Below, one piece after another: positions 1 to 15,795 of a DNA stretch of 32,000 nt; position 1 is the first letter of the stretch, and every line of letters starts with the position of its first letter. The DNA is taken from positions 1 through 32,000 of the forward strand of contig CAYHAA010000017.1 of the NCBI GenBank assembly GCA_964354495.1, written 5' to 3'. The DNA comes from an uncultured archaeon (GTDB taxonomy: Archaea; Asgardarchaeota; Thorarchaeia; Thorarchaeales; Thorarchaeaceae). The notes beneath the pieces are model-generated. The model saw only the letters and a list, made by a program, of their open reading frames with translations, ran no database searches and was not told where the DNA came from. Position numbers and translations under genes: made by a program.

Positions 1-201
1 CAACTCTAGGTACTGTATGAACACACTTTCAGTCTGCACGCCTCGGACATTAGTAGTGGTGAGCTGAACACCTCGCCGGAGCTTGGTACTTACACCCCCA
101 CCCTATTAACCTCGTCTTCTACGAGAGTCCTCGTTCCTAGACTCGACGTTACTGTCACCAGTCGCATCGTCTTTTACAGATCGTCTAGCAAGTGGATATC
201 T
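1..201 (-). repeat. Direct repeat copy A: displaced 3' end of 23S rRNA plus trailer (probably continues left of the window)
   Basis: 1-137 aligns to 12657-12793 with 2 mismatches (88, 108). 188-201 (gcaagtggatatct) aligns to 12877-12890 (gcaaatggatatct). The interior differs. Confidence 0.95.
32..201 (-). pseudogene. 23S rRNA 3'-terminal fragment with a short ES39 variant
   Basis: Homology to the 3' end of the intact 23S. No upstream rRNA sequence beyond position 201. Confidence 0.85.
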
Positions 202-420
202 TTGACCCATTTCCACAGTGTGAGTGAACTAACTGTGAGAAACTTCTATGTTCCACCCTTCCCTTGCTCGTGTCACCACTTCCTACATTCCAATGGAATG
301 TAGAATTAGCAAGAGCTTTGTCAACTATCATCGGGATGGAATCCCTCCTGAGGACCGGGCTTCGTTCTCCTGTGTTGATATTGGTTCATCACTTCCAACC
401 ACAGAGAGAGTTTCCATAGT
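202..420 (-). ncRNA. Putative TnpB omega-RNA scaffold (5' limit unknown)
   Basis: Position at the tnpB 3' end/right end. Stems ctacattcc(283-291)/ggaatgtag(295-303) nested in cttgct(263-268)/agcaag(308-313), plus the terminal hairpin 214-237. Confidence 0.5.
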
Positions 421-1980
421 CTTTGCCACGGCGAGGTCATCATCACTCATCTTGGAGTCGTCACCGAAACCAAGAAGGTCCTTCTGGACAAAGTGAATAG
501 CCGCGGACTCTCTAGAACCTGATGTTGGTTCCTTCGCAGAGAGTAAGGACTTCCCATGAGAAGGTATCTTCTTTCGGGCTTTCAGTCGTGAGTGTTTCCC
601 TGCTTGTACAGAGTCTTCCCACTTACCTAGTCCTCTCACAGAGTGCAGTGACTTTGTGAGCGTGATGAGGCGTCCGGCAATGTTGATGGCTCCATTCCTG
701 TCTGCATTGGTCTTGTGACCACACAAAGGACATCGAAAGTAGTTCTGTTTTGGTCGTACCCCCTTTGTACCGCATTTCCAACACATGATGGATGTCCAAG
801 CTTCAGGCACTACTTGGAATCTCGATTCTTTTCCTTCAGTGGTCCATCCTCTTTGAGCCAATCCATGTCTGAAACTGTCTGTGATTCGTGCAAAGGCCCA
901 AGAGTGAATCATTCCTCTAAACTGTCTTCCTTTGAAATTCCCTTTCCGAGCCACAATTCGAATATTCTTCAAGCGACCAATCGATACATAGACTGTATAT
1001 CTCCCTGAGAGTTCCTCAATGTAGTTTAGGAGGTTCCTGACTAGAATACGGTCATACTCTCGAGCAATATTCTCACGTCTATGCCGAATTTGTCGAAGCT
1101 TCTGAAAGACCCCATCTAGGTCATCTTTTGTGAGAGTCTTTCGTTGAAGGTCAGCCACGAGCTGGTCGTATCTCTTGATGATTTCGACCTTGTCCTTCTG
1201 TTTGAAGTATCTCGTTTCACCAACCTTCTCAGGAGTGACCAATGTTGTACAAGCGGCTTTCTCAATACCCAAGTCTACTCCAAGAACTGCGGGAGGAAGA
1301 GATGTATCAGGAACTTCATCTATGGTAACGCTAACTGCAAAATTGACCCACCACTTACCTGAACGGTCGGTGAAAATCTGACATGCCTTTACTTCACCAC
1401 GATGAAACTGGTTGACATGGAATGGGGACACTTTCAGAGGTATGATCAGTCTATCATGAAATGTTCTTCCTTCAGGAACAGAATCTAGAGAGTTCCGAAG
1501 GTTGAGCTGCCACCCAGAGTAATGTTCAAGTTTGAACCGTTGATTAAACACCCATCGAGGAATTCTTCTTGAGAAGTTAGTCCTGGTGGGTCGAGAAGCA
1601 TTCCATCCTTTCTTATCTCTCAGTGCCAAGTAACTCTCATAGAGAGCAACTGCTGTCTGCCTACACTCCTGCAGCTCATTGGTTGAAATTCTTGGGAATC
1701 TCTTCTTTATGTCATGGGGAACAGACGGTCTTTGACCATACCCGGCTTTTGTTTTGAGTGCGGTCATCGTGAGCTCGTCTAGTTTTCCATCATGAATCCG
1801 ATTTTTGTTACGACCTGTCAACAACTTGTTTTCATGTTGTTCAATTATTCCAAGGAATGCACGAATCACTCTCGTGTCCCTTCCAACAATCTGCCTCAAT
1901 CTCTGTTGAGTTCGTTGTGTCATCGACTCCCACTTTATTGGGATTTTAACACTGATTGTTGTTCCACGGGACCGAGCCAT
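328..1980 (-). CDS. tnpB: TnpB RNA-guided endonuclease with rearranged RuvC (550 aa)
   Basis: RuvC-I LGVDLG, RuvC-II IGRL (Gly for Glu), VPEAWTS, CWKC/CPLC zinc finger, RuvC-III NADRNGAINI. Confidence 0.92.
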   Translation of the reverse strand: MARSRGTTISVKIPIKWESMTQRTQQRLRQIVGRDTRVIRAFLGIIEQHENKLLTGRNKNRIHDGKLDELTMTALKTKAGYGQRPSVPHDIKKRFPRISTNELQECRQTAVALYESYLALRDKKGWNASRPTRTNFSRRIPRWVFNQRFKLEHYSGWQLNLRNSLDSVPEGRTFHDRLIIPLKVSPFHVNQFHRGEVKACQIFTDRSGKWWVNFAVSVTIDEVPDTSLPPAVLGVDLGIEKAACTTLVTPEKVGETRYFKQKDKVEIIKRYDQLVADLQRKTLTKDDLDGVFQKLRQIRHRRENIAREYDRILVRNLLNYIEELSGRYTVYVSIGRLKNIRIVARKGNFKGRQFRGMIHSWAFARITDSFRHGLAQRGWTTEGKESRFQVVPEAWTSIMCWKCGTKGVRPKQNYFRCPLCGHKTNADRNGAINIAGRLITLTKSLHSVRGLGKWEDSVQAGKHSRLKARKKIPSHGKSLLSAKEPTSGSRESAAIHFVQKDLLGFGDDSKMSDDDLAVAKTMETLSVVGSDEPISTQENEARSSGGIPSR

Positions 1981-2232
1981 CGTTTACCAACCTTATAAAT
2001 TTCTGACCCGTTTCGGCCAGTCGAGTTCACTCCCCTACTTGTTTACAATAGAGGTTATGTACTCATATTTTCTCTATTACCGAACCTTATAAATTTATTA
2101 AGCAGAAAGAGCTCATAATACTTTATTTGCTATTTAAAAGTCATATATTGCTTTATTTCATTAAAATAGATATTCGTATTGAACTCTAAATCCTTATAAA
2201 TTATTGATAGATTTTGTTCAAGAGGTAAGAAA

Positions 2233-5200
2233 ATGGGTCGCAGACCGAAGACGTTCCAACCAAATGCAGTCCTTCAGTCTGCAATCTATTCGGGACTTGC
2301 AGCTTTAGCACGTCTAGCACGAGGACGAGTCCGAAGTAAGAAGAAGAAATACTACAAGAGTATTGAAAAGAACTGGATGAAAGCCTGGAAGAAGTGGGAA
2401 GAGTCCAGACTACTTGATCCCTATGACTTCTCATCTATCCAGAATGCAGAACCAAACCTTCGAGGTGCCTTTCTCAATCTACTATGGCAGTCAACCAGGC
2501 GTTATGGTAACAGAGAAAACAAGAGAGTGTACAGCTGGTTGGAGGGTACCGTTGGACCACTCAACGCCTTACTGAACTATGCAGGTGCCCGTCTCCGTGA
2601 CCTTGCCCTAACACACTATCAGTTTCCAGAGCCAATATATTATGAAGTCAGAGTCTATGATAAGATTACCACCAAGGTTTTTCCCAAGAATATAGCCAAG
2701 TTGTATCCTGATCCTAATGCGGTCAAGACATACAACAAGGCTGGCTATCCAGGAAACCAGTTCGGTCCTAGAATACTCTTGGCTCATCCCACTCTCCCTG
2801 GAATGGACTTTGTAGACATGATTCGTGCCCACCTCGTCGAGCTCTGCAAACAGCTCTTCATCTACAACGTCCCGCGTACTGAGGCACACAGGTACATCAG
2901 ACTTCTCATCCACAAGCTCCGACCGTACCTCGACTGGGTATATACTCAAGGAAGGACAGGTAAGAAGAACTTCAATCCTGAGAGCGACAGGGAACTAAAA
3001 GAAATCGTGAATGAAACAAAGGCATTTCATGGAAAGAATGTTGGTCGACACAAGTCAGTCACAGAAACAATAGAAGGTAGTCAACTGCCAGACACTATCA
3101 AAGAAGTGAGAGGGGAGATCGAACAAAAGCTCAAGGAAACAAGGGACAAGACAGAGAAAAAACGCATCAAGGAGATCTTGGACCAGATAGACCAAGAGAC
3201 CCTACAGGACAAAGACGCTCAGATACTCAGGGACCAAGTGTTGAGTTTGAGTCAGCAAGAGGGTAATTATTGGCATAGGATACTACTTTCAGACCTGCAT
3301 CATCCAGCCTCTCTAAAGCAGGTAGTCTTTGCAGGGGACAAGATGCTTGAAGAACCATCACCAGTTTTGATTGTAGGAGAGCTACCAGTAGAAAAACGAA
3401 CAGGACAGATCGATATCACATTCTTTCTCAGAAGAGAGATACCGGGACAGACCATTATGACCCCCATACTCATTCTAGAGATAAAGAGCAAGACTGGGTT
3501 CAGCTATAACCTCTATGGAGTCCGAACAAGGAACAAGAAGAAGAAGGATTATGGACCAAGACTGTTTGCATGGAAGAGGAAACTCAATGATCATGAATGG
3601 AACGTAATATCAAAGGCAAAACCACTGAAGGACACGATGGACCAACTCGATGCATATGAAACAATATTGTTGCAGGAGTATAGGAGTCTAGTTCCTTCAG
3701 ATCCCACTCCTCCAAAAAAGTTGTGGAAAGGTGTCATTGTATTAGACACAGATCAGAAACCTTTGGATGTCTTTGATGCATTCTATGACCTGCTGGATGA
3801 ATTGGTCACTGCTCTGGTCAATGGCATGGTCGACTCCAGCAGTCTCACTTCGTACATCTCAGACCCTAACAGTGATCTCAGAATGGCCCTCATTCTGACT
3901 CCATCTGAGGGGCCTTCTGAACTCGTACAGCAGATGAGCCCTCCTGAAAACATTACAGAAGAAGATCCATTCCAAGACCGGGTTTCGGACGATAGGATAC
4001 TCACACTCTATGTGTCTGTCCCCTCTTCAACCTCTTCTGGAAACGCAGCAGCAGGGATATCGACGAACTGGCATCTCATTCACCACATCAAGGATTGCAT
4101 TGAGAAAATGTCAGAGAAAACGGAGGTCTACTGGTTGGACCTTATGGGTACCTACAAAGAGATCGAAACGGAATACTCTGAGAACCAAAAAGATGCAGAT
4201 GAATCTGATGACAGGGAAGATGAGCGAATCCACCTCATCAACAAAAGGTTTGGACTTGACAAGATGCTGAGGGAGAGAGAAATATCTCGGAGAACTCACA
4301 GACGATTGACGGATCTTCTTAAGAGAATTAAGTTCGTGGACTTGAGCTCTGAGATAGACTCCATCCTCCTTAAGAACGAAACCGATTTCTCAGAAATCGT
4401 CGACACTGTTCAGTCCAATGTTCCTTCAGACAGAAACACTGAGAAAATCATTGTCCTAGATGGTTGGTCAGAATTCGCAAATCTGGTTTCAAGGGAACAC
4501 AGACCATTAGTGAGTGGTCTTGAACGGACCTTCCTCGATGTCCTTCCAGAGAAAGACACTGAATTGATTTGGATAGACAGTGGGGTTTCTCACACACGGA
4601 TGAACCCGACATATCAGCGGACGTGTATCCGACCCATACCACATGATTCGCACCGAAGGAAACATCTGGACGAGATTATATACAACATACCAACAACCCC
4701 ACGTGTCTTTGGTTGGCAGACTCCTAGAAGAGAGGATATTCGTGTCATCATCCAGGACACACCGACCTCGGCAGACCCATGGTCGCAGATCATTGATGTT
4801 CCCCTCCTCAGGAATATGACAAGGAAAGTTCGAGGTGTGTCAAAAAGAGATGGACTTGCGTCAGATGATGGCTTAATACAGCCAGCTCACTTTACGCCGA
4901 TGTATGGTAGAGGAATCACACTCTCAACTATAGCTACTTCTATGTACCCCCTGACAGAAGACACAGTTGAACAGATCAAGAAAGATTCGGTGACACTGAT
5001 TCCCAGCACCATCAGGTCAAGAAGGAAGGAACCTGAGGAAGAAGTAACTGAGGTTGATGAAGAGGAAGAAGAGGCCAAGAGGGAAATAGACATTCATGTT
5101 ATTGCTTCGCCATCAAAGACCTTTTCTCTAACGAGACGATTGGTCTTAGATCCAACACACCCACCTCCACCTCATCCCAGGGCACGAGAGCAGTATCATG

Positions 5201-7941
5201 AGGTAAAGAAAATCAATAGAGCCTGGTGTTATGATAGTTTTCCAGTAGAGGAGGAAGAGGAAGACTATCCGGTTTTGAAACCTCCACTTATCGAGTTGAC
5301 CACCAGTCAAGAAATCGATACAACGACGTGTAGGGAACTGGAACTGCGGCGGACTCTATATACAGCACAGTATCTGATGAGGAAACTTCCCTCCTATGAA
5401 GACCTGTATCACTGTTGTGAGAGGATTGTCAACACAGTTTCCCCGATTCTGAAGAAAAAGAGGGAAATGAAGACTGGGCTGGTATTACTCCGCCTCCTTA
5501 AAGATGTGCGGAGTCTAATTAGGGAGGAGTCGGGGAGTAGACAGGTCTGGGAAACACTACTTCCAATGAGGAAGGACCTAGTCACACTCCTAAACTCCGA
5601 AAACAGGAAGTCACTGGAAGACACGCTGGCACAGAACTCAGATGTCCTCGAACTTTATGGCAACAACCTATTCCTTACAATGTGTGCCACTATGGATGAG
5701 CTTCTATCGGAGGAGGCTCTGAGGCCTGCAATGGCCATTCAGCTCTGGTCAGCCATAGCACAGTGGGTTCCCTATCAACTCGGTTTCAAAACGCAGTCAA
5801 CCATGATCACATCAAAGTACGACTTACGGGCAATCCACTCAGACCTCCGTTTGAGGATCAAGTCACTAGTGAATAGGGTTCCAGTAATCCAAAGATTAGA
5901 GATCCAAAACTACGGACAAATGCTATGGTCTGAAGAAGAGGGAATCTTCTCGTCGTGGATCATCTTTCCCAGCGCAGAAGAGATGGTAGGAGGATATGTC
6001 ACAGGACTTGGAGAACCATTCCTCCGTGCCAAGTGGTATGACTGTGTCAAGGATGCGGGAATGCAGAAGTTCTCTGCAAGAAAAGCAGCAAGTTCTACTA
6101 CACGTACTCCGATAATGACCCAACAGTATGGGAGTGAAACCATTCTCTGGGTGTTGTGTGAAGATGATGAGGAAGCAGGTTTGTTTTGGCTTCCCTTCAT
6201 ACTTGAGTATCCCTCGAGTAAGAATGTGCTGTTACCTTGGTTCAAACTCTCAGAACTGTCTTCTTCATCATTCGCAGAACTGCAACCCCCAACCTCTGTG
6301 GAAGTCCCTCCGTATACTGTGAGGAACATTGACAGGTTCCTACAGTCTGTTATTGAAACGACTAAAGACCCTATCGAGGTGACCTGTGAGGTATCAATAG
6401 ATCTTGAGAGTAAGTTGTTTCAGATTGACTTCACTCAAGGTGGGAAGATCATTGAAACCTTCAAGTGCAAGGAAACCTACAAACTCCTTCGGACTCTCAG
6501 ACATCCCATCAGGACTGGTTTTGGATATGAAACATCAAGTGGAAACCTGTTGACATGGGACCACAGAAATGATATCGAATACCATGATGTGACAGTGAAG
6601 AGAAACGATGGGAGAAAAGAAACCATCTCCCTTACTCTTCTCAAACCCTTCGTCCATCGAAGCAGGTTCTTTCCTGACGAATACAGCATTCCCAAGACCT
6701 GTAGTGAGCTGTTGTCCACAGAAGAGTGTGATATGTTGACATTATTATTCGTGCCAGAGGACTCCAGCTTCAGGTCAATAAGATTGGAGTTTGATGGACT
6801 CCCATCTGGTTCTTCTTTGCATGCCCTTGAAACTGTATGCATGAACATCTATGATGTTGCGCTTTTGACAGAGTGTGAGCAGCTGGTTGATACGGCGAGA
6901 GGGACTCGACACCGTATGGATATCAACGCTAAAGGACTCTTTGATCTCCAGTTCTCTAGGCTGAGCGACTACCCTCGATTGCAGGAAGCAATCAAAGATT
7001 TGGATATTAGTGACTATGACTGGTCAAGAGACCCGTGGACAATCAAAATTGACACTACCATAGTGAACAAGAACGAAATACGATGGTACCTAATGTCCGG
7101 GTCTGGAATGGTATGGCAGAAGAAGGTGTATGACTTCGTCATGGATTACACACTCAGCATTAACGAGGTCATCAATGAATTTGAAGAGGTGGTGGACAAG
7201 ACTATCCCTCTGAAGCACATCTCAGGACTCTCAGAAGTCATTGCTAGCCTGAGGAGTACACTTCGTGATCAGGGTTGGAGAAAGGGAAAGCCGCGATGTA
7301 GGATCATTCTTGAGGAAAGGGGAGGAGGGTATGTAGCGGTGGTCAATAGGCTGGGACCAAAGAGAATTTCGACTGAGATTGACAGCTTTCCTATTGATAT
7401 GATGATTGATGAGGAAGTCTTGAGTGAAGAGTTGGGAGGAGAGTGGGGACTTCTTTCTAGGTTTGATGTGGTGAACTTGGAGGAGTTCTATGAGGCTGTT
7501 TCCATTGCCGCATCTGGAGTTGAAATGGAAGACAATAGTGACAGCGAGCTTGATGAGGAGGCTGAGTTGCTCCAAGTAATCAGTGAGTGGAGAGAGGAGA
7601 AGAAGCATCCCTTTGCGCAGAGATTTCTTGGTGAAACTCTTGCGCAACTAGCGAGTCTTTACTTATCACAGAATAGGCTCCTTGAAGCATTGAATTTTGC
7701 AGAGGAATCTGTAAATATTCTTCAAGCATGGGATGAAGGTGGTCCAAGTGTCAGACTATCCCTAGCAAGAGCTTTTGCTGTGAAAGCAGACGTCTTCCTG
7801 ATTGAGAAAAGGGACATTTCTGAGGTCAAGAGTCTTCTACAGAAAGCCCATGAGCAGATTGGTTCATTAAAGCCTGACATTAGTGTTTCGAAAGTTAGTA
7901 AGTGGATAGAAAAGTTATCAAGAAGAGTCAGTAGTGAGTGA
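2233..7941 (+). CDS. Giant hypothetical protein (1902 aa): PD-(D/E)xK nuclease motif, degenerate RecA-like NTPase, C-terminal TPR-like helices
   Basis: Uninterrupted 5.7 kb ORF. GELPV..QIDITF..ILEIKSK motif, EVYWLDLMGT and KIIVLDGWSEF strands, TPR-like LAQLASLYLSQNRLLEALNFAEES. Confidence 0.8.
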   Translation: MGRRPKTFQPNAVLQSAIYSGLAALARLARGRVRSKKKKYYKSIEKNWMKAWKKWEESRLLDPYDFSSIQNAEPNLRGAFLNLLWQSTRRYGNRENKRVYSWLEGTVGPLNALLNYAGARLRDLALTHYQFPEPIYYEVRVYDKITTKVFPKNIAKLYPDPNAVKTYNKAGYPGNQFGPRILLAHPTLPGMDFVDMIRAHLVELCKQLFIYNVPRTEAHRYIRLLIHKLRPYLDWVYTQGRTGKKNFNPESDRELKEIVNETKAFHGKNVGRHKSVTETIEGSQLPDTIKEVRGEIEQKLKETRDKTEKKRIKEILDQIDQETLQDKDAQILRDQVLSLSQQEGNYWHRILLSDLHHPASLKQVVFAGDKMLEEPSPVLIVGELPVEKRTGQIDITFFLRREIPGQTIMTPILILEIKSKTGFSYNLYGVRTRNKKKKDYGPRLFAWKRKLNDHEWNVISKAKPLKDTMDQLDAYETILLQEYRSLVPSDPTPPKKLWKGVIVLDTDQKPLDVFDAFYDLLDELVTALVNGMVDSSSLTSYISDPNSDLRMALILTPSEGPSELVQQMSPPENITEEDPFQDRVSDDRILTLYVSVPSSTSSGNAAAGISTNWHLIHHIKDCIEKMSEKTEVYWLDLMGTYKEIETEYSENQKDADESDDREDERIHLINKRFGLDKMLREREISRRTHRRLTDLLKRIKFVDLSSEIDSILLKNETDFSEIVDTVQSNVPSDRNTEKIIVLDGWSEFANLVSREHRPLVSGLERTFLDVLPEKDTELIWIDSGVSHTRMNPTYQRTCIRPIPHDSHRRKHLDEIIYNIPTTPRVFGWQTPRREDIRVIIQDTPTSADPWSQIIDVPLLRNMTRKVRGVSKRDGLASDDGLIQPAHFTPMYGRGITLSTIATSMYPLTEDTVEQIKKDSVTLIPSTIRSRRKEPEEEVTEVDEEEEEAKREIDIHVIASPSKTFSLTRRLVLDPTHPPPPHPRAREQYHEVKKINRAWCYDSFPVEEEEEDYPVLKPPLIELTTSQEIDTTTCRELELRRTLYTAQYLMRKLPSYEDLYHCCERIVNTVSPILKKKREMKTGLVLLRLLKDVRSLIREESGSRQVWETLLPMRKDLVTLLNSENRKSLEDTLAQNSDVLELYGNNLFLTMCATMDELLSEEALRPAMAIQLWSAIAQWVPYQLGFKTQSTMITSKYDLRAIHSDLRLRIKSLVNRVPVIQRLEIQNYGQMLWSEEEGIFSSWIIFPSAEEMVGGYVTGLGEPFLRAKWYDCVKDAGMQKFSARKAASSTTRTPIMTQQYGSETILWVLCEDDEEAGLFWLPFILEYPSSKNVLLPWFKLSELSSSSFAELQPPTSVEVPPYTVRNIDRFLQSVIETTKDPIEVTCEVSIDLESKLFQIDFTQGGKIIETFKCKETYKLLRTLRHPIRTGFGYETSSGNLLTWDHRNDIEYHDVTVKRNDGRKETISLTLLKPFVHRSRFFPDEYSIPKTCSELLSTEECDMLTLLFVPEDSSFRSIRLEFDGLPSGSSLHALETVCMNIYDVALLTECEQLVDTARGTRHRMDINAKGLFDLQFSRLSDYPRLQEAIKDLDISDYDWSRDPWTIKIDTTIVNKNEIRWYLMSGSGMVWQKKVYDFVMDYTLSINEVINEFEEVVDKTIPLKHISGLSEVIASLRSTLRDQGWRKGKPRCRIILEERGGGYVAVVNRLGPKRISTEIDSFPIDMMIDEEVLSEELGGEWGLLSRFDVVNLEEFYEAVSIAASGVEMEDNSDSELDEEAELLQVISEWREEKKHPFAQRFLGETLAQLASLYLSQNRLLEALNFAEESVNILQAWDEGGPSVRLSLARAFAVKADVFLIEKRDISEVKSLLQKAHEQIGSLKPDISVSKVSKWIEKLSRRVSSE

Positions 7942-8301
7942 CCCTACCTCACTTCTGTCGATGAAGATTAAAGGTAGTAAGATAGTAAGTTGAGGAATGT
8001 CTATTAGTTTCTACTCCGAATCAGGTAAAGATTGGTATCGCCCCATACTCCAATGCGCTCCTCCTCTGGAAGTCTGTCCATAACAAGTAGAGCCCATCTG
8101 ATGTCATGAAGGAGACCTCAGCTTTCGGATGGAATCTTCAACGATTAATGGACCTTAAATAACTCGTCATCATAGATGCATTTTTCTGGGCGACTTGGAC
8201 TGAAACCCCACATACAGACATACTAACAACAGAGCAACGGGATATGGGAAGCCTTGAGTGAAGTATAAAAGAGACTGCTAGAAAGATGATATCGGAGGGA
8301 A

Positions 8302-9303
8302 GTGACGTTCAAACCATACAAACTCAGTAAGGATGCTATATCGGCAGTGAAGCAGATAATAGGTTATAGAAGTACTCCGATGGAAGACAGACCACAAGTA
8401 GAAGATATGTTTCATACATCATTTGGAAAAACACTTGGTAGTCAAGTTGGTGAAATTCTAGATTTTGCAAAGAGAGGACAAATTCTCCTAATAATACTTC
8501 CACTCACTAAAATCATAGAGAAATTACAGAAATTCATTCAAGATGGAAGTTATCTTAAGGCTGTGGAAAGCGCTCTATCACCCAAAGACATTGATAAGAT
8601 GAAGGCCTTTGAGGTTGTCATGCAGGATGTCGATGTTGGGGACACTGTAGACACTGTGGAAGAATTGATAATCCAAGACGATGAGCTCTGGTACCTGTCA
8701 TTGATAACATTTACAGTGTATGCGTATGTGGATGTTTACTCGAAGAGTCTAATCAAAAGTCTGACATCAAATCCACTACTGATGCAGAAATTAGAAACAT
8801 ATCTTGAAAGAGAAGCGCTTCATAATAAAGACGATATAGAGAGAAAATATGTCACATCAGTTACAGATCTCTCGCAGTATGGAGTTAGTCGGAGGCTTCG
8901 GACCATAGAAATAGGTCTGTCAATAGACCGGATTTTATCTGAGGTTACAAATCAAGATATTCTTAGCATAATTAGAAGTAGCTTTATCAAAATCATAAAA
9001 ACAAGACATGAAATTGCACATAGAGATCCAAAGTTGAAAAGAGATGACTACACATATGAGATGTTTGAGGATATTTCAAACGCTGTCGAGGAATTGGATT
9101 TCACTTTTAATGAGATAGAAGAAATGTTTGGTTTTTTGAAACCAATATTCGGCACAATCGAGGATCTAGGAAAGCAGACAATGGATAGAATTAAGAGAAC
9201 TATGAATATTGCCTACATGACAGTGCTGTATCCAGCATTAATTGATGTAGTAGTTCATGATTTGGTAACTTGCACAACTAGGGATTCACATCACACAATG
9301 TGA
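8302..9303 (+). CDS. HEPN-domain protein (putative RNase/toxin)
   Basis: Helical protein with an intact Rx4H motif (KTRHEIAHRDP). Confidence 0.75.
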   Translation: MTFKPYKLSKDAISAVKQIIGYRSTPMEDRPQVEDMFHTSFGKTLGSQVGEILDFAKRGQILLIILPLTKIIEKLQKFIQDGSYLKAVESALSPKDIDKMKAFEVVMQDVDVGDTVDTVEELIIQDDELWYLSLITFTVYAYVDVYSKSLIKSLTSNPLLMQKLETYLEREALHNKDDIERKYVTSVTDLSQYGVSRRLRTIEIGLSIDRILSEVTNQDILSIIRSSFIKIIKTRHEIAHRDPKLKRDDYTYEMFEDISNAVEELDFTFNEIEEMFGFLKPIFGTIEDLGKQTMDRIKRTMNIAYMTVLYPALIDVVVHDLVTCTTRDSHHTM

Positions 9304-9628
9304 TAAATGCAGAGTAGACCTATGACCTATTAGAGAGATGCGAAAAATCGAGATAGAGTATGCAACAGGAGATAGGACAACAGACTACTACTATTCCTGT
9401 GTTTCAGAAGATGGGGCTATTGTTTTCAAGCCAGAACCTATCACTATCAAAAGCCTAATCAATTTAACTTCAAAGTGCTAATTGCCATCATCCATCTCGT
9501 TCGTTGTGAATGTTCCACATTGTAAAGCATCCAAGGATTCCTAACCCAATATCATGGTCAGTAACCATAGAGCCATAGTGGGACGTCCCAAGGTTGTGTG
9601 TGCAAACTTCCAATTGTTCTATTGAACC

Positions 9629-10822
9629 TCACCATCTCCAATTGTCTACATGATAATCCCACAATCCAACACACATTTTCAATGATTCGCGAATTCGAAG
9701 CTTATCATCTTCTGATTTACAGCTTAAGAAGACTTTGTATAGATGAGGAACCGTTACAAGACAAATCTTCAATTGTTCTGCCATCTTCACAACCGAATCT
9801 TCGTAAGCTTTTGATAAATCACGGTCATTCGGATGAATATGGTACCAGGGATTGAGAATGAATATTCCCCTAATCTTCTCTCGATCGTCAATTAAATACT
9901 CTAACACTTGACGAAATTTCGTCTTCCCCAGACTGCCTTTTTTTCCAGTACACTCAATTCTTGCTTTATAGTCACCATCATTAATCTCGATATCTTCTAA
10001 CCACTTAGTTTCCTTATATTCTGCATGAAATCCTAGAGATTGAAGGATAGTAGTAACCTTGTGTGAGAGAGAATGACCATGATCAGCAAGAATACTCTTC
10101 TCTTTTTCGATTTCATCTAGCTTATTCCTTATGTCGTGCAGTTGACATCTGAGCTTCTCTTCATCACGAATGAAAATAGAATCAAGCCAGGATGGTCTTT
10201 CGTGGGATGGATTCCAAAAAGGTGGTAGGATATTTTCAATAATCTGCTTCAAGTAAAAAGACAACATCTTCCTTGATGATGGATTTGATTCATTTAGCAT
10301 AATTTGTCTTGTGGGCGGAATAATCAATAATCGACCTTTCCTATGTTGATAGACCAGTGAAATACAAGTTCCACCTACTCCCTGCATTAGAATATGGGCA
10401 GTTGAAGGAAGTGGGTTAAATTCAACAGAAGATACGAGATTGTTTTGCAGTCCAAATAAAAATGATTTGATCCAATGTGGTTGTTCCTTATGAAACCGCA
10501 CTTCTGATTCATTAAGATAACGTATCGATTTCCCTAGACTTTTAACCCATGGTAAGAAGTGATAGTTTGAAATCTTCTCAGAAACCATCTTTGGTGGTGC
10601 GCTAACGACAACTAGAATTCCTCCATTGTCTTCAATGAAATCTATTATGTTGATAATTCGAACAATCGTTTCTTCATCATAGACCTCGTTCAGGTTGAGA
10701 ATGACTACATCATCAGATTCCATTTCCAGTGATTTCTCAGGAAATTTTGAATGCCAACTATATCTAATTCCCAACCCGTTTTGAGGGCTTTCTCCGAAAC
10801 CAATGATTAGAAGATTCGGCAT
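9629..10822 (-). CDS. GATase/ThuA-like N-terminal domain fused to a restriction-endonuclease-like C-terminal domain
   Basis: IIDFIEDNGGILVVVS motif, coiled-coil linker, and LQSLGF..EDIEI..ARIECTGK..FRQVLEY resembling Mrr-like PD-(D/E)xK domains. Confidence 0.6.
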   Translation of the reverse strand: MPNLLIIGFGESPQNGLGIRYSWHSKFPEKSLEMESDDVVILNLNEVYDEETIVRIINIIDFIEDNGGILVVVSAPPKMVSEKISNYHFLPWVKSLGKSIRYLNESEVRFHKEQPHWIKSFLFGLQNNLVSSVEFNPLPSTAHILMQGVGGTCISLVYQHRKGRLLIIPPTRQIMLNESNPSSRKMLSFYLKQIIENILPPFWNPSHERPSWLDSIFIRDEEKLRCQLHDIRNKLDEIEKEKSILADHGHSLSHKVTTILQSLGFHAEYKETKWLEDIEINDGDYKARIECTGKKGSLGKTKFRQVLEYLIDDREKIRGIFILNPWYHIHPNDRDLSKAYEDSVVKMAEQLKICLVTVPHLYKVFLSCKSEDDKLRIRESLKMCVGLWDYHVDNWRW

Positions 10823-11055
10823 TATATCAACTCCTTACACACAGATGTCAATTCTTCTATAAGAGGAATATCTCTCTTATCATTAGCTGTTGGTCTGGCA
10901 CTTGAACAAAAGTGCTAATGTTCATGTGTTTAGAGATATTGTCCAGCTTAGAATTAACAATGCAAGACTAGATACACATCTGTATGCCTTGTAACACCTG
11001 AAGTACATAGCTTCGTTCTCTGCAAGTGTTTCATTGGTCATTGTGATTTCCTCCA

Positions 11056-12213
11056 TCAATCATAGTAGTCATCTACGAATGTGTTGTAACCATACTCCCC
11101 AAGATAGGGAGAGTGTCCATCTCGTTCAAGTTCTTCGAACTCTTCCTCAATCTCGTCCACCTTGCCAAGAGCGTATTCATGCTCTGGATCATGGACAAGT
11201 GCTTCTAGATACATGTCCAGTGCATACTTCTTAAGCCCAGCATCATAGAATAGCTGTTCCTGTTCACAGATGATATTGGGGTCTTTCGGGTCCAAGGCAA
11301 AGGCTCGATTGACGGCATCCTCATAGAGGTCATAATTAGTGTGTACCTGTGAGAGTTCGTACCAAGCCTGAGCATCCTTGGGCATGAGTCGAGTTGCCAT
11401 CTCAATGCACATGATGGTCTCCCATCGTCGGTCGTATCTCTCAAAGACATCTGCAAGGACGACCCATGCTCCAAGGTCATTTCTCCCAATATCGAGAGCG
11501 TCACGGATCCTACGTCTCTCTGTCTTACGCTTACTCTTGGGACCTTCTATTGATGATTGAAGGAGAGATAAGGCATCCTTTGTTCTATCAAGTCGGAAGA
11601 GGATGAGGCCTAGAGAGAATTGTATAGTCAGCTCTTCAGGTGCAAGTGTGCGTGCCTCCTGCAGGAGACCCAATCCCTCTCTCTCTTTGCCCAGTTCTAC
11701 GAGGGCTAAACCAAGGAATTGGAGGGCACGTGGTGTTATTTTAATCTCTAGAGACTTGTCAAGAGCTTCCTTACACTCCTTCCATTTCCTTTGAAAATAG
11801 TACGCTACTCCTACCTCGGTCCAGTGATCAAAAATCTCAGGTTGAATCTTACATGCTTTTCCGAAGGCTTGACTAGCATTATAGTATGCATGTTCTATCA
11901 TCTCGATTATTCCTAGATGGAACCAGGCGGCACTGTTCTTTGGATTGAGTTAGGTTGCATTCTTGAGAACTACATCGATGTTGTGCCATCTCTCAATCTC
12001 CATACATCTTCTTGCATAATGCAGGTAGGCTATGGATGTCTTTTGCTTCTTTCTTGATCTTGCTTCTAGTTCCTTGGCTTCACCGAATAGTTCCTCCGGA
12101 CTCGATAGATAGATACGCTCAACCTCTTCTTCATCAAGTTCCAGACCAGTATAGGAGTTTACATCCCATGATACCCACATCAGCTCGTTTCTCCACAGAA
12201 TAAAGGTACACAA
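11056..12213 (-). pseudogene. TPR-repeat protein interrupted by an in-frame TAA (11950-11952)
   Basis: ORFs 11950-12213 and 11056-11901 are in frame. The 16 intervening codons (LNPKNSAAWFHLGIIE) continue a TPR motif. Confidence 0.75.
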
Positions 12214-12641
12214 GAATAGTTAGATGTTGTTTCAAAGCCACATTGCTTACAATATGATTCTAATAGATGTGAAACGGTTTTAGACTTCGTTAATACACTA
12301 AATCGAAATTATGAAGAACACTTTATGAATTTGCGACAATTATAGGTTTTATTGAGAGTTCTTAGAGTCCTAATTTGCAAAACTCCAGTTTTTCAATCTA
12401 ATCAACCATTCAAACCTTGAGTTCGAATCCTTTCACTGTGATCTCGTAGGGAATCACATCCTTCGAGTGTATAGCTACTCGCCATTTGATAGTGAATACT
12501 TGAGATGCCCCTTCTGTATAGTAAAGCAAATTCTCCCATCCTGTGATTGGATTGTGACTACTGGATATTAGGATTAGGAATCACAACCCTAACCTCTCTT
12601 CTTATATTAGAAAAACAGACAACAGGGGATGGAAGTACTTT

Positions 12642-12666
12642 AACAAAACCCCTAGACAACTCTAGG
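12642..12666 (-). terminator. Hairpin plus T-tract downstream of 23S
   Basis: cctaga(12651-12656)/tctagg(12661-12666) followed on the minus strand by GGTTTTGTT. Confidence 0.5.
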
Positions 12667-12687
12667 TACTGTATGAACACACTTTCA

Positions 12688-15794
<3,107 letters not shown>

Positions 15795-15795
<1 letters not shown>

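Follow-up and report, generated by a model that had tools for sequence, protein, structure and literature searches.

A TnpB right end at a displaced 23S rRNA fragment in a Thorarchaeota genome and its predicted rRNA-derived guide

The locus raises the question of why the right end of a tnpB element lies directly against a displaced piece of a 23S rRNA gene, and what the nuclease would recognise if its guide were read from that piece. The window, meaning the whole stretch of 32,000 nucleotides that was analysed, comprises bases 1-32000 of contig C17 of a MAG of 3.3 Mb in 51 contigs (G000); where homologues of its proteins come with a source name, that name is Candidatus Thorarchaeota. The reading preferred here, to which a probability of roughly 0.55 is given, is that of an intact OMEGA module carrying an ordinary flank-derived guide in an unusual place and aimed at 23S genes with a short H98 helix, for retention or homing.

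The 23S gene, the island and the displaced fragments

The features of the window that bear on this question are listed below, with the evidence for each in brackets.

1-201, minus strand: displaced 23S 3' fragment A, of the short H98 type usual in the genus (Rfam, BLAST)
182-202, minus strand: predicted guide, 20 nt past the right end, at 202-183 or 201-182 (mapped right-end position)
203-345, minus strand: omegaRNA scaffold of about 143 nt, overlapping the last tnpB codons (nhmmer profile of family copies, matching 345-202)
328-1980, minus strand: tnpB, 550 aa, intact (Pfam, NCBIfam, PDB profile, 24-copy alignment)
1981-2232, no strand: divergent intergenic region with TTTATAAGG-type promoter boxes, conserved between copies (upstream alignment of C17, C6 and C27)
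2233-7941, plus strand: giant gene, 1902 aa, divergent partner of tnpB (tblastn pairs, AF2 and Foldseek)
8089-8208, plus strand: remnant of a KaiC-like ATPase gene, 3' part (alignment with L111, which runs to about 8211)
8302-12686, no strand: rest of the island (Pfam and NCBIfam scans, BLAST)
8302-9303, plus strand: HEPN-like ORF
9629-10822, minus strand: 397-aa ORF
11056-11901, minus strand: TPR protein
12687-15795, minus strand: full 23S rRNA gene, the only one in the assembly (Rfam 2482.9 bits; alignments)

The order of the locus was read along the rRNA strand. The 23S gene with its long-H98 3' end (B) is followed by an island of about 12.5-12.7 kb, in which the TPR protein, the 397-aa ORF, the HEPN-like ORF, the giant gene, tnpB and the omegaRNA succeed one another, and the island is followed by fragment A. 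After A come a 187-aa ORF, fragment C, about 2.4 kb, fragment D and finally housekeeping genes, which are syntenic with the regions downstream of the 23S gene in G012 and G017. The resident 23S carries a long variant of the H98/ES39-like helix. A second Rfam 23S match at 45-134 corresponds to the last ~90 positions of the model. The last 137 nt of fragment A are 98.5% identical to 12793-12657 (Rfam, BLAST), while the remaining ~60 nt form a different, shorter H98/ES39-like helix with compensatory stem changes relative to the resident 23S. Direct repeats of the 23S 3' end thereby lie at both island borders, 12890-12640 on one side and 201-1 plus the trailer on contig C32 on the other. A 14-15-bp direct repeat, (T/A)AGATATCCAYTTGC, was rejected as a target duplication; it has two mismatches in 15 positions, compared with two in the next 137 nt.

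The rRNA fragment reported at the window start by the first-pass annotation is real, with the correction that position 1 is the contig end. Contig C32 shares a 41-nt overlap with it and runs on into the rRNA trailer, and the locus most likely continues from C17 into C32. It was considered whether the first 201 bases had been wrongly joined to the tnpB flank at the rRNA repeat. A contig end does lie 201 nt away from the junction, the MAG has a contamination of 3.8%, and the last 137 nt are a repeat. None of the public read runs contained more than 20% of the sampled words, and the contigs of four runs gave no bridge over 202/201. Such an artefact is nevertheless highly improbable, because the assembly has no second copy of the 64 nt beside the right end (201-138, short H98), which places the join away from any repeat boundary. 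It is also very unlikely that a false join would coincide exactly with a TnpB right end, and the overlapping C32 has the matching trailer.

Displaced 23S 3' fragments were located at 1-201 of the window, at 13207-13290, 11897-11987 and 9247-9524 of C32 (L056) and at 6078-6229 of C15 (L060). The fragments of this array (A, C and D on C17/C32 and the one on C15) differ in phylogenetic affinity. Fragment C, of ~90 nt, is nearly identical to the G012 allele, and fragment D, whose homology begins 4 nt later than that of A, at ATCC, joins a long-type 5' half to a short-type 3' half as a hybrid. Comparable arrays of 23S 3' fragments were found in G012, G001 and G009. The nhmmer search revealed no omegaRNA remnants before fragments C and D or in the rRNA-fragment arrays of G012, G001 and G017. 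As the other fragments have no preceding omegaRNA, the 23S 3' end would be a general integration hot spot in the genus, with the TnpB junction as one event among several; from the arrays it looks like a recurrent integration site. A 180-aa ORF of no known family adjoins a 23S 3' fragment at two loci (L056 12685-13248 and L060 5546-6082); the two copies share 73% aa identity and differ in their orientation relative to the fragment.

These arrays bear on a reading in which the module is a passenger. A site-specific recombinase, supplied in trans or since lost, would have placed the island in the 23S 3' end, like the other fragments of the array, with the tnpB and giant-gene unit merely at its edge. 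The guide would then be a by-product that meets no cleavable target, because the TAM is wrong, position 1 is mismatched, or the module is silent or decaying. The arrays of differing affinity here, those without TnpB in G012, G001 and G009, and the start of fragment D only 4 nt from the same rRNA position without an omegaRNA fit this reading. It is considered unlikely, as purifying selection acts on tnpB, the omegaRNA and the giant gene, all of them intact, and as it leaves to chance that right end and rRNA homology meet within 1 nt. The Pfam and NCBIfam scans also revealed no integrase, tyrosine or serine recombinase, TnpA or reverse transcriptase in the island or on C32.

The right end, the omegaRNA and the tnpB gene

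The right end was mapped by alignment of nine tnpB 3' regions from this genome with about 45 from 18 of 28 congeneric genomes. Every aligned omegaRNA closes with a hairpin, whose loop is GTTCACTCA, and a tail that terminates in RGGTYA; past this motif the copies share no further similarity. On the minus strand of the window the order is hairpin (237-214, GTTCACTCA in its loop), a short single-stranded tail ending in GGGTCA (208-203), A202 and then AGATATCCACTTGCTAGACG (201-182), and the 23S homology begins at 201. The scaffold end and the start of rRNA homology thus agree within 1 nt, which confirms the first-pass claim that the tnpB right end abuts a displaced rRNA fragment; judged from the alignments, the coincidence is not a chance resemblance. 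The terminus had been given as (T)TCAA, and the family alignment replaces this with RGGTYA. The caveat that the TCAA could be an rRNA relic was likewise set aside, since GGGTCA is the right-end motif both in the family alignments and at the point of divergence from L111, a JGI metagenome contig whose sequence parts from that of the window directly past GGGTCA/AGGTTA.

The structure of the omegaRNA is conserved in the family. RNAalifold gave 21 consensus pairs with compensatory changes in 14 of them, and when 20 copies were folded singly almost every one formed the terminal hairpin. Its stems covary, being CACAG/CTGTG in the window, GCAAG/CTTTG in L111 and AACAG/CTGTT in L062. A conserved GTTCACTCA motif downstream of Asgard tnpB genes and 'aCas1-associated' TnpB groups have been described, and a 'hypervariable region' before GTTCACTCA was suggested as a possible guide (PMC10691335). 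Family-wide, for example at 237-214, this region is the 5' strand of the hairpin and covaries with the 3' strand.

In eight other family insertions the sequence past RGGTYA continues the empty-site sequence of this genome. The base directly past RGGTYA already belongs to the flank in six of these eight, so the guide probably starts at A202.

The tnpB gene was analysed for its integrity. Its product matched Pfam Cas12f1-like_TNB PF07282 with 45.7 bits (cut-off 26.3), NCBIfam guided_TnpB with E 1.7e-25 (90.1 bits, under the cut-off of 100) and the PDB TnpB 9nzp with E 7e-13. The RuvC-I residue D236 (GxDLG), the RuvC-III residue D427 (NADxN) and the zinc-finger residues C400, C403, C417 and C420 are invariant in 24 family copies. 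In all 24 the canonical RuvC-II Glu has given way to another residue (AIGRL), and an alternative Glu, E393 (PEAWTS), is invariant. In sequence this arrangement fits the 'rearranged RuvC-II' class of Altae-Tran et al., which is predicted to be active (PMC10691335). The dN/dS of tnpB against L111 is 0.16, which indicates that the gene is maintained.

The predicted guide and its candidate targets

TnpB guides are always flank-derived, and the guide here would therefore be rRNA-derived. In the preferred reading the RuvC-II-rearranged TnpB and its ~143-nt omegaRNA would constitute the right end of a tnpB and giant-gene element. This element would in turn be the distal end of a 12.7-kb insertion that separates the only 23S gene body from its displaced 3' fragment. 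If the module is expressed, the transcript would pass from the scaffold end GGGTCA (203) into fragment A, and the guide, taken as 20 nt, would be (A)AGATATCCACTTGCTAGACG, the first part of that fragment. PMC10705468 describes how TnpB cuts the element-free allele so that recombination restores the element. By this established logic the RNP would cut an element-free allele and homologous recombination would copy the element back; its target here would be the uninterrupted short-H98 23S allele that is usual in the genus.

The guide was compared with the resident gene and with those of relatives. The resident 23S (12890-12871, preceded by GCCGAAAAT) matches at 15 of 20 positions with mismatches at 10, 15, 16, 17 and 18, inside the swapped helix, exactly as the first-pass annotation had stated, and through these mismatches the host long-H98 gene would probably be spared. 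Among the 20-mers of this genome with up to five mismatches it is the only one in an rRNA context; the other matches with four or five mismatches lie in unrelated sequence. The survey of relatives covered 13 congeners with an assembled 23S 3' end. The native 23S has 0-2 mismatches to the guide in 11 of these: none in G012 and G009 (20/20), one in seven species and two in two species. Only the two long-H98 genes, those of the host and G017, have 5-6. Un-invaded 23S alleles matching the guide, which the earlier annotation had supposed, therefore do exist in this survey and also in a soil-metagenome contig, which reads CAAAGCCGAAAAT followed directly by AGATATCC. The sequence ...AAAAT stands directly upstream of the target in all 13, a flank whose compatibility with the TAM is presumed.

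Several observations count against the preferred reading. A guide start at A202 gives a mismatch at position 1, as the native 23S genes all have T opposite this base. The left end of the mobile unit is rearranged (8089-8208 and the inverted 12401-12489). Random insertion fails to explain the exact coincidence of right end and rRNA start, which needs either insertion into rRNA at this very point or movement of the island as one unit. The guide of a related copy on C27 perfectly matches the tRNA-Gly(CCC) of its own genome behind AAGAG.

The TAM was sought in the eight empty sites. The 5' contexts of five insertions in nearer relatives (AAGAA, AAGAG, CGAAA, CTAGA) are purine-rich and resemble the GAAAA(T) of the 23S, and those of three more distant insertions (CCAAC, CTAAT, TTCAT/TGGAT) are not purine-rich; the logo of all eight yielded no strict TAM motif, which agrees with the passenger reading. 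The perfect match of the C27 guide lies in tRNA-Gly(CCC) at G000 C6:77863-77937, behind the purine-rich AAGAG, and appears to be a tolerated self-target. The C27 copy is orthologous and stable in G000 and G012. A guide that matches an essential tRNA-Gly(CCC) of its own genome speaks for a more specific TAM or a low activity, and the lack of apparent harm is likewise a point for the passenger reading.

The match and mismatch pattern has also been read as the design of a homing element, the first of two models in the first-pass annotation. A purpose-built rRNA homing element would mean that the whole 12.7-kb island spreads between Thorarchaeota chromosomes, with a 23S 3' end that resists the guide on one side and TnpB/omegaRNA on the other. 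TnpB would cut un-invaded short-H98 alleles, and the island would be copied in by repair that uses the 23S body and the displaced fragment. Homing would be expected to leave the site in empty alleles and to destroy it in occupied ones, and at the sequence level this was found (0-2 mismatches in 11 of 13 congeners, five in the host). TnpB has a reported TAM-proximal seed of 12 nt, and the resident mismatch at 10 falls within it, with those at 15-18 beyond. The matching naive alleles are common in the genus and present in soil metagenome. The insertion is moreover bounded exactly by GAAAAT and AGATATCCA on the left (12891/12890) and by the right end at 203/202, like one unit, and searches of the island for an integrase, TnpA or Cas1 were negative.

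Neither the 87 class genomes nor the metagenome scan yielded the same insertion at the same site again. In the metagenome collection 31 pattern matches to a junction between the right end and 23S were obtained, none with an omegaRNA or an rRNA fragment, and all 31 are attributable to chance; a pattern match in G066 was similarly rejected as a chance match inside a coding region. It had been asked whether close tnpB homologues also sit beside rRNA fragments. No further case was found in these 87 genomes and the metagenome scan, and the nearest tnpB relative (95% aa) is beside a protein gene. The occurrence is thus single. Fragments C and D and those of G012 and G001 have no adjacent omegaRNA, so the array arises by another route; the island interior is rearranged, and guide position 1 is unmatched in native 23S. 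The homing model therefore stands as far as matching un-invaded alleles and a mismatched resident 23S are concerned, but a purpose-built design has no positive support and is considered doubtful.

If the RNP of the preferred reading is active on short-H98 genes, it would be the first case in which an RNA-guided nuclease polices or invades an rRNA gene while a 'recoded' immune allele occurs naturally beside it, and TnpB-assisted retention would be extended from small insertion sequences to a 12.7-kb island. If it is inactive, the locus would be a clear example of flank-derived guides accidentally pointing at essential genes. Short and long H98 form a natural target and non-target pair for an Asgard TnpB with a relocated catalytic Glu.

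The giant partner gene, the mobile unit and related systems

The pair of tnpB and giant gene was searched by tblastn. Further pairs lie on C6, C27 and C31, and in relatives most full-length tnpB copies have the giant gene as a neighbour. The giant protein has 125 homologues, none with a Pfam domain, and the source names that identify an organism are all Thorarchaeota; the size in the family is 1.6-1.9 kaa. The dN/dS of the giant gene is 0.26 (window against L111), and from these comparisons the pair appears conserved and under purifying selection across Thorarchaeota. The locus thereby highlights a widespread, unannotated partner protein of 1.6-1.9 kaa. The AlphaFold halves of the protein (pLDDT 83.8 and 78.6) suggested a PD-(D/E)xK-like sheet at aa ~378-449, a RecA/Rad51/KaiC-like domain at aa ~586-880, beta-rich domains and a TPR-like C-terminus. 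In the homing reading these predicted nuclease-like and RecA-like folds are in favour, since the protein may assist recombination.

The identification of the giant protein as Cas1, an integrase or a transposase was rejected, as no Pfam, NCBIfam or PDB-profile match was obtained and no Cas1 stands among the Foldseek matches listed for either half; an Atlas lead to AAA_22 scored only 0.75. Cas1 (PF01867) is absent from the whole genome in the Pfam scan. With no Cas1 in the genome or among the partner-fold matches listed, this subfamily does not show the 'aCas1' association described in the literature. Aloposons (PMC8813620) were rejected as a different element; they have tandem genes of 3-6 kaa preceded by one for a ParA-like ATPase, and TnpB is not mentioned for them.

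The extent of the mobile unit was estimated from L111, which is 92% identical in nucleotides over window 212-8211 and lies at an unrelated locus. The occurrence of this unit at an unrelated locus with an unrelated flank indicates that the guide is whatever flanks the right end. The mobile unit, as far as this alignment reaches, would be at least 8 kb and contain tnpB and the giant gene. The second model of the first-pass annotation, an ordinary IS inserted at TTTAT followed by AGATATCC, was thus not borne out; the unit is not a 1.9-kb IS but one of at least 8 kb, and the flank on that side is not TTTAT. An IS200/IS605 or IS607 element would carry TnpA or be a short tnpB-only unit, and no TnpA was found in the window.

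Position 8211, where the C17/L111 alignment ends, was rejected as the left terminus; the stretch is a remnant of the ATPase gene that is intact elsewhere (L116-L118). A second piece of it was found by BLAST at 12401-12489, inverted and 4 kb from the piece at 8089-8208. The opposite orientation suggests that the island has undergone an internal inversion or deletion. This rearrangement obscures the left end of the mobile unit.

The right-end junctions of the family were examined for structural-RNA genes. At least five of 48 distinct junctions begin inside tRNA-derived sequence (a tRNA-Arg anticodon loop, a tRNA-Gly 3' end, two tRNA-Ser pieces and T-arm-like fragments), and C17 adds rRNA. By this count the enrichment at right ends lies well above chance, and it is the main reason for keeping a homing or targeting hypothesis. 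One of these junctions belongs to the C27 element (G000 C27:7054-14335), which is 7.15 kb long and has tnpB and the giant gene as its only genes. On one side stands an intact tRNA-Gly(TCC), whose CCA end occupies the expected position of the RGGTYA terminus, and on the other a 46-nt tRNA-Gly fragment that begins in the anticodon loop, at the stop codon of the giant gene. The element is orthologous in G012 (L107), and its presence in two species argues against homing by indicating vertical inheritance with no recent spread. More generally, the Thorarchaeota pairs might be self-contained cassettes for island homing, in which TnpB cuts unoccupied 23S and tRNA genes, the giant protein promotes copying-in and the island carries a guide-resistant gene end; this extension is speculative and is given still less credence than homing of the window island.

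The locus was compared with known systems. Like the IS200/IS605 TnpB-omegaRNA of ISDra2, it has a RuvC and zinc-finger TnpB, an omegaRNA over the 3' end of the gene and a guide beyond the right end. It differs from ISDra2-type systems in lacking TnpA in the window, in the relocated RuvC-II Glu, in the 1902-aa partner within a unit of at least 8 kb and in a flank that is a fragment of an essential rRNA gene. With the Asgard aCas1-associated TnpB (PMC10691335) it shares the Asgard host, the rearranged RuvC-II and the downstream GTTCACTCA, here a hairpin loop. The differences are that no Cas1 was found in the genome (Pfam) or among the partner-fold matches listed, and that the 'hypervariable region' is one strand of a covarying stem and not a guide.

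As in genomic islands that integrate at tRNA/tmRNA genes and rebuild the 3' end of the gene, the island has direct repeats of that end on either side, the target gene is kept intact and displaced fragments stand in tandem. Here, however, the target is a 23S rRNA gene, no integrase was found and an RNA-guided nuclease reads across the junction. The homing endonucleases of rRNA introns (I-DmoI, I-PpoI) recognise a conserved rRNA site of empty alleles and do not recognise the occupied allele. The window resembles them at the sequence level, with a conserved rRNA site in empty alleles and a mismatched occupied allele, but recognition would be RNA-guided, and a 12.7-kb island downstream of a replaced gene end takes the place of a self-splicing intron. 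In CRISPR-associated transposons, homing guides toward tRNA genes direct insertion by the transposase. The likeness is that the guide of a mobile element matches a conserved structural-RNA gene beside its insertion site, whereas at the window locus only the nuclease is present.

Two relatives of the element were also noted. IS200/IS605 elements are not known to make a 10-12-bp duplication, and such a direct repeat, GGTTGGAGTA(TT), occurs at 7795 and 19199 of L112 around an 11.7-kb island (tnpB, giant gene, peptidase S8 and nucleotidyltransferase) that ends with a 77%-related copy; the repeat is found once in the empty site at G000 C3:~169600. A tnpB-only relative of ~2.2 kb without the giant gene lies at 13567-15787 of L095 (G015:C8), and its clean empty site was located at G000 C6:38845-38914.
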